Of a stretch of DNA of 64,000 nucleotides, positions 33,910 through 34,287 are shown in pieces. The notes under the pieces were generated by a model. It was not told the origin of the DNA. It did not search any database and was given only the letters and a program-made list of their open reading frames with translations. Made by a program: the position numbers and the translations under genes. Numbering within the stretch: position 1 is the stretch's first letter; each line of letters opens with the position of its first letter. The stretch is from NCBI RefSeq assembly GCF_030384885.1, contig NZ_CP128613.1, one strand, 5' to 3'. Source of the stretch: Escherichia coli. GTDB lineage: Bacteria > Pseudomonadota > Gammaproteobacteria > Enterobacterales > Enterobacteriaceae.

Positions 33910-34247
33910 GTTCTTCTAGTGCCATAACCCTGAACGCCGGGCTTCGGTTAGTAAGGGTTTTTTATGCCCGCGATAAATAAACTCTCTATTCCCCTATCAT
34001 TATTCTCAGCGCTTGCAAGGCTTGAACGGTAAGAACAAGCTAAACTCGACCACCATTTTGCTGTTCATAGCCGCTTGCTGGAAATTAGCCGACCTCACTC
34101 ATTCTCACCGTTCAAAGCGTGCCCCCGTTTTACCCCTGCGTAATTGTGAACGCCAGCAGAGTTTTTTATGCGTTTACGGATATGGAAAGCGGCTCGGAGA
34201 GAAAAGCTAAAGATGGGGAAGTTACAAAAAAAATCGCGAGATACATC

Positions 34248-34278
34248 GCATAAAACAACGCCACCCGAAGGTGGCGTG
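34248..34278 (-). terminator. Terminator downstream of ytfP (tamAB-ytfP operon end)
   Basis: acgccacc-cgaa-ggtggcgt hairpin flanked by T-rich tracts on both strands. Confidence 0.75.
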
Positions 34279-34287
34279 CTTTTATTA

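Follow-up and report, generated by a model that had tools for sequence, protein, structure and literature searches.

A decayed allele of the chpSB toxin-antitoxin locus, retaining a fragment of chpB, probably occupies the ppa-ytfP interval of an Escherichia coli strain

Introduction

In Escherichia coli K-12, chpS and chpB, the two genes of a type II toxin-antitoxin (TA) locus, are placed between ytfP and ppa (PMC5120126, Fig. 5 table). The question is what occupies the same place in the stretch of E. coli DNA analysed here (64,000 nucleotides, referred to below as the window), for which a preliminary description had reported a ppa-ytfP interval of only about 380 bp with no MazE/MazF-like ORF, and had interpreted it as a strain-level presence/absence polymorphism at a known hotspot. 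Chromosomal TA loci of E. coli are located at conserved positions, and some of them are in decay through deletions or nonsense mutations (PMC7167474, citing Fiedoruk 2015 and Mine 2009). A pan-genome association study has also treated chpB and chpS as a gene pair of variable presence, associated with healthcare-associated bacteraemia isolates (PMC6096937). On a chpB relic, or on the distribution of chpSB among phylogroups, the literature covered, which did not include Fiedoruk 2015 and Ramisetty and Santhosh 2016, gave general statements only.

Results and Discussion

The ppa-ytfP interval and its neighbouring genes

The interval extends over positions 33910-34287 of the window and is exactly 378 bp long, in agreement with the length given earlier. 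Its left boundary is ppa (33379..33909, + strand), a 176-aa ORF encoding inorganic pyrophosphatase and annotated as ppa in the identical record NZ_CP027579, and its right boundary is ytfP (34288..34629, - strand), a 113-aa ORF of the gamma-glutamylcyclotransferase family annotated as ytfP (WP_001219160.1), beyond which tamB is located (34632-38411, - strand). The K-12 record confirmed the stated position of chpS and chpB. There, the interval comprises 886 bp, including chpS (252 bp) and chpB (351 bp), both transcribed in the ytfP direction, a ytfP-chpS spacer of 211 bp and a chpB-ppa spacer of 79 bp. The alignment of both intervals, proposed in the preliminary description as a check, resolved by blastn into three colinear pieces of the window, 33910-33992 (89.5% identity), 34017-34116 and 34126-34277 (86%).

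The ytfP-proximal intergenic block (34126..34287, - strand; blastn 86%) is the homologue of the ytfP end, ~162 nt, of the 211-nt K-12 ytfP-chpS spacer. The terminator scan placed in it the ytfP terminator hairpin mentioned earlier (34258-34277) and a second terminator-like hairpin (34235-34250). The A-run at 34228-34235, described as lying between two terminator-like hairpins, is A8 or A9 among relic alleles, and small ORFs on the + strand change frame with its length. In the K-12 record NC_000913.3 (4447000-4450500; L085), locus tags skip from b4222 (ytfP) to b4224 (chpS). The former b4223 (yzfA), described as adjoining ytfP in K-12 (PMC5120126), has disappeared from the annotation of the spacer corresponding to 34126-34287. 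On the opposite side, a stem-loop of the form AACCC...GGGTT followed by a T-run, read from the sequence at 33926..33962 (+ strand), is a weak, putative ppa terminator; it is invariant across the aligned relic and chpSB alleles, but its folding is no better than that of shuffled sequences (z=0.02) and it was not called by the terminator pattern scan.

A fragment of chpB is retained in the interval

The tblastn search with K-12 ChpB, which had been proposed as a further check, returned a single significant match in the 64-kb window, and this match was located in the interval (34093-34007, - strand; aa 15-43, 62% identity, E=6e-5). The middle blastn piece, 34017-34116, falls inside chpB as well (77% over 101 nt, E=1e-15). 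By local alignment, the homology spans nt 19-145 of the gene (codons 7-49), read in the window from 34116 to 33991 with one nucleotide deleted. The final chpB codons and the stop are represented by 33986-33994 (GGGGAATAG versus GGTGGAATAA in K-12). The nucleotide identity to K-12 chpB is 73-77%, and the fragment occupies the position orthologous to K-12 chpB, colinear with it and in the same orientation (- strand, like ytfP). Translated in the chpB frame, it reads FER*E*V / EVG*FPASGYEQQNGGRV*LVLTVQALQAL... where K-12 has FERGDIVLVGFDPASGHEQQGAGRPALVLSVQAFNQL..., which amounts to four in-frame stops and one frameshift.

Judged from tblastn, blastn, local alignment, translation in the chpB frame and analysis of the junctions, 33986..34116 (- strand) is a decayed fragment of the chpB toxin gene of ~130 bp, a pseudogene relic at a locus from which chpS has been deleted. 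As the alignment is short (~126 nt) and the identity to intact chpB reaches no more than 73-77%, the exact breakpoints and any dating based on it are approximate. The earlier report of chpSB absence thus holds as far as a functional pair is concerned, since no intact gene is present in the interval, although the interval is not free of homology: the finding that had been named as contrary to that report, chpSB homologs at this place, was formally obtained, but in the form of a dead fragment only.

Two deletions account for the difference from K-12

The K-12 chpB gene contains 6-bp direct repeats, TGGTGG, at nt 140 and nt 341. Joining one repeat to the other in silico gives ...CTGGGAATGACGCTGGTGGAATAA and reproduces the relic junction, which reads ...CTGAGAATAATGATGGTGGAATAG in the common relic allele and ...ATGATAGGGGAATAG in the window. 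This indicates an in-frame loss of 201 bp from within chpB, between the repeats, with the region of the stop codon kept. The second junction is found on the ytfP side. In K-12, the sequence ...GGGGTAAAACG is followed by 49 nt with the palindrome GTTATACTTTGTATAAC and an AAGGAGG Shine-Dalgarno sequence, and then by chpS, whereas in the window 9 nt, GGGGCACGC, separate it from TTTGAACGG, where chpB sets in at codon 7. Placed side by side with the K-12 ytfP-chpS intergenic sequence, this 9-nt filler (34117..34125, - strand) replaces 312 bp of K-12, namely the 49 bp of promoter, operator and Shine-Dalgarno sequence, all of chpS, and nt 1-18 of chpB. The filler junction is identical in other relic alleles, including that of E. 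albertii, and the origin of the 9 nt is unexplained. Together, the two deletions explain 504 of the 508 bp by which the interval is shorter than in K-12.

It is very probable, in light of these junctions, that the interval is a decayed allele of the chpSB (ChpBI/ChpBK, MazEF-family) type II TA locus, formed by two deletions. The ancestor would have carried chpS-chpB between ppa and ytfP in the K-12 orientation. One deletion would have removed 201 bp of chpB in frame between the TGGTGG repeats, as slippage or illegitimate recombination typically does, and the other, whichever of the two occurred earlier, would have removed the 312 bp with the operator/promoter, the Shine-Dalgarno sequence, chpS and chpB codons 1-6, leaving the 9-nt filler. 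What was left of chpB, ~130 bp, may then have drifted neutrally and acquired stop codons and a frameshift, and the resulting cell would be devoid of ChpB mRNA-interferase activity and of its control by ChpS.

The remaining locus and its small ORFs

Compared with K-12 chpSB (chpBI/chpBK, b4224/b4225, MazEF/PemIK family), the window has the position, the orientation and both spacers in common, but it lacks chpS, the promoter/operator, and chpB codons 1-6 and about 50-116, and what is left of chpB is interrupted by the stops and the frameshift. An intact toxin ORF (ChpB, 116 aa, PemK/MazF fold) is absent, as no more than codons 7-49 and the final codons persist. An intact antitoxin gene (ChpS, 83 aa, MazE/AbrB-type) immediately upstream of the toxin is absent too, as chpS is wholly deleted at the junction. 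With ChpS as the query, tblastn gave no match in the interval, its best match in the 64-kb window (E=0.18) being inside tamB, and no other ChpS/ChpB-like sequence was found in the window below E=0.1. The autoregulated promoter/operator, represented in K-12 by the 49 bp upstream of chpS with the palindrome GTTATACTTTGTATAAC and the Shine-Dalgarno sequence, is missing from the window, the promoter scan detected no sigma-70-like promoter in 33800-34400, and Rfam gave no match for 33000-35000 at E<=1. Of the features of a functional MazEF-family module, only the location between ytfP and ppa, in the ytfP direction, is found here, while those of a decayed TA locus are present: significant homology to a toxin gene at the orthologous position, and a frame destroyed by deletions, stops and a frameshift. 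As the relic has neither a promoter nor an antitoxin partner, the locus appears to be non-functional, a relic which is presumably neither expressed nor active.

The 65-aa frame noticed in the preliminary description is present in the ORF list (34013..34210, + strand) and runs antisense to the chpB relic. It might be supposed that 33970-34257 has been co-opted for a function, whether through an sRNA or through a small ORF, be it this one or another. ORFs of 44-65 aa do exist on the + strand, and thousands of genomes, together with E. albertii, have kept ~378 bp without further deletion. However, indels break the ORF frames between relic alleles, and the alleles diverge from one another (by 6-17% in the relic, with 86% identity across the ytfP-proximal block) at least as much as the flanking genes do at synonymous sites; the Rfam and promoter scans likewise speak against a function, so that co-option is highly unlikely. 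The 65-aa ORF itself was rejected as a gene, its frame being broken or changed by 1-nt indels in WCHEC025943, SCPM-O-B-8794 and E. albertii, and no feature is annotated at its position in the relic-allele records inspected. The other small ORFs were rejected as genes as well, since their frames are not conserved among relic alleles.

Two alleles in the E. coli population

The frequency of both forms was determined in 5,426 complete E. coli genomes with K-12 chpSB (596 bp) and the 378-bp interval of the window as queries, presence being scored at >=80% coverage. The chpSB query was present in 3,098 genomes (57%) and the relic allele in 2,321 (43%); one or the other was found in 5,419 of the 5,426, and the ppa-ytfP locus in E. 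coli is thus essentially biallelic. Any match to chpSB was obtained in ~3,100 genomes, which is the number without the relic allele, and these counts argue indirectly against a copy of chpSB elsewhere in the genome of E. coli 2013C-4282 (NZ_CP027579). K-12, O157:H7, O104:H4 and an ST131 strain belong to the chpSB lineages, and O121:H19 and O91 to the relic lineages; O104:H4, O121:H19 and O91 are all generally assigned to phylogroup B1. The polymorphism claimed earlier is therefore real within E. coli, but it is not a matter of single strains, as it concerns one old allele shared by 2,321 genomes and by other species. The locus is better described as a case of TA decay, in which a common and old deletion allele of chpSB carries the scar of chpB, than as one of simple absence.

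The few exceptions to the two-allele pattern include strain HH45 and a rearranged UPEC strain. HH45 (NZ_CP116411; L004 1393-1904) has the relic junctions together with a 101-bp patch 100% identical to K-12 chpB and a ~130-bp G-rich insert, and the PGAP annotation has a PemK/MazF pseudogene there; the patch may represent either gene conversion from the intact allele or an artefact of assembly or polishing. In UPEC_U013 (NZ_CP058596; L088), the relic interval is adjoined by esiB instead of ytfP, which points to a local rearrangement. Apart from the assembly noise that the G-rich insert of HH45 suggests at this locus, nothing specific favours the view that the short interval of the window is itself a collapsed or misassembled region hiding chpSB. 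Such an artefact is practically negligible as an explanation, for the allele is 100% identical in the finished genome NZ_CP027579 and the same structure recurs in the complete genomes counted above and in other species. The window shares every nucleotide of 33379-34629 and 50000-54000 with E. coli 2013C-4282 (100% identity), while the next-best genomes among the 5,426 reach 97.3-98.5% identity over these regions; the window strain therefore belongs to a rare, nearly solitary lineage of the collection.

Age of the deletion allele in Escherichia

A cross-species scan with YtfP as the query and one genome per species yielded 80 loci. Four representatives of Escherichia species, namely E. whittamii, MOD1-EC7003, E1V33 and a record bearing the label E. 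coli E69, have intact chpSB, with its distance from ytfP unchanged. A relic-sized interval with the same two junctions and the filler was found in E. albertii and in SCPM-O-B-8794; the latter is labelled E. coli, yet its tamB is only 91.7% identical to that of the window, and it represents a second non-coli Escherichia species. As identical junctions are shared by E. coli, E. albertii and another Escherichia, the comparison points to an old deletion allele of single origin. Identity of the relic to the Escherichia chpB genes is 72-75% throughout. With the genes of other genera (Lelliottia, Enterobacter, Kluyvera and Pseudocitrobacter) it amounts to 57-71% in alignments that span most of the relic, those with Kluyvera being mostly too short to use. 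A derivation from a non-Escherichia chpB was rejected on the basis of this closer similarity to Escherichia chpB.

Relic alleles are 83-98% identical to one another, and the relic differs from intact chpB by ~27%, roughly twice the distance between the E. coli and E. albertii relics. For intact chpS and chpB, the comparison of K-12 with four other Escherichia species gave dS of 0.20-0.35 and dN/dS of ~0.06-0.16. The flanks are comparable in divergence (tamB, dS 0.24-0.41; ytfP and ppa similar), and the intact allele has therefore also been inherited along with its flanks, under purifying selection. By this rough dating on 126 nt, both alleles would be old, having either coexisted since before the split of the species or been exchanged by homologous recombination through the conserved flanks. 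It could further be proposed that the intact and relic alleles form an ancient trans-species polymorphism which predates the E. coli/E. albertii split and is held at 57:43 by balancing selection. Such a polymorphism seems rather unlikely; if real, it would be an example of balancing selection in which a benefit of ChpB in phage defence or stress is set against its cost, the alternative being drift combined with recombination.

The ytfP-ppa gap in other Enterobacteriaceae

Outside Escherichia, more divergent intact chpSB (63-78% aa identity) is present at the same site in Lelliottia, Enterobacter asburiae, Pseudocitrobacter, Kluyvera and one Enterobacteriaceae isolate, while in most species of the family the gap is empty and 99-194 bp long. 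This distribution bears on the opposite history, in which the lineage of the window never had chpSB, its site being an empty ancestral one, and K-12-type strains gained the pair by insertion. The many Enterobacteriaceae with a ytfP-ppa gap of 100-170 bp and no chpSB, the patchy occurrence of chpSB across genera, and the general view of TA modules as horizontally acquired (PMC7167474) would all be compatible with such a gain. An ancestrally empty site, however, should show no chpB remnant placed and oriented as the K-12 gene is, and the 378 bp found here exceed the 99-194 bp of the empty gaps in outgroups. The empty-site history is therefore extremely unlikely, and the scar shows that the TA pair was lost in the relic lineages and not gained in the K-12-type strains.

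Loss from this site may have happened more than once. Like the window, Citrobacter sedlakii and Enterobacter cloacae have short ChpB/ChpS-like fragments in the gap without an intact module, a ChpB fragment (aa 63-107) in the former (L027 3430-3562) and a ChpS fragment (aa 9-31) in the latter (L033 5100-5168). Different parts of the genes are kept in these two relics, which therefore derive from separate decay events, and this suggests repeated decay of chpSB at the ytfP-ppa site.

Variable and decaying chromosomal TA loci have already been described in E. coli, and the present finding is ordinary and known in kind. Mine and colleagues (2009) reportedly documented the decay of the chromosomal ccdO157 TA system in E. 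coli. That locus resembles the one studied here in being a chromosomal type II TA system at a fixed intergenic site, intact in some E. coli lineages and degraded in others through deletions or nonsense mutations, and its decay has been read as loss under weak or absent selection. It differs in belonging to the CcdAB family and to another locus, and in having reportedly been inactivated several times independently, whereas here one old haplotype is shared with E. albertii. The strain of the window would be without ChpB/ChpS, which counts among the 'ten mRNase TA' loci of K-12 that persistence studies have employed. Beyond correct annotation, the observation is of little importance. Behind a pan-genome call of chpSB as 'absent' stands one old deletion allele that can be recognised by its scar, and this chpB scar is usable as a simple two-state marker.

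The hotspot character ascribed to the site is a fair description for Enterobacteriaceae, in which the gap holds varied cargo, but not within E. coli, given the two alleles that account for nearly all genomes. Cargo-bearing gaps were seen at loci L016, L017, L018, L033, L035, L041, L045, L051, L054 and L080 (about 3343 onward). In Enterobacter (L033/L051) the cargo consists of three small ORFs without a Pfam match, and in Pluralibacter (L054 5247-5971) of a RelE-like and HTH pair. Other gaps contain a methyl-accepting chemotaxis protein, a TonB-dependent receptor or a GGDEF-EAL protein, and those of Citrobacter youngae and Salmonella arizonae contain an Hcp-domain protein of 375-403 aa with a 93-aa neighbour.
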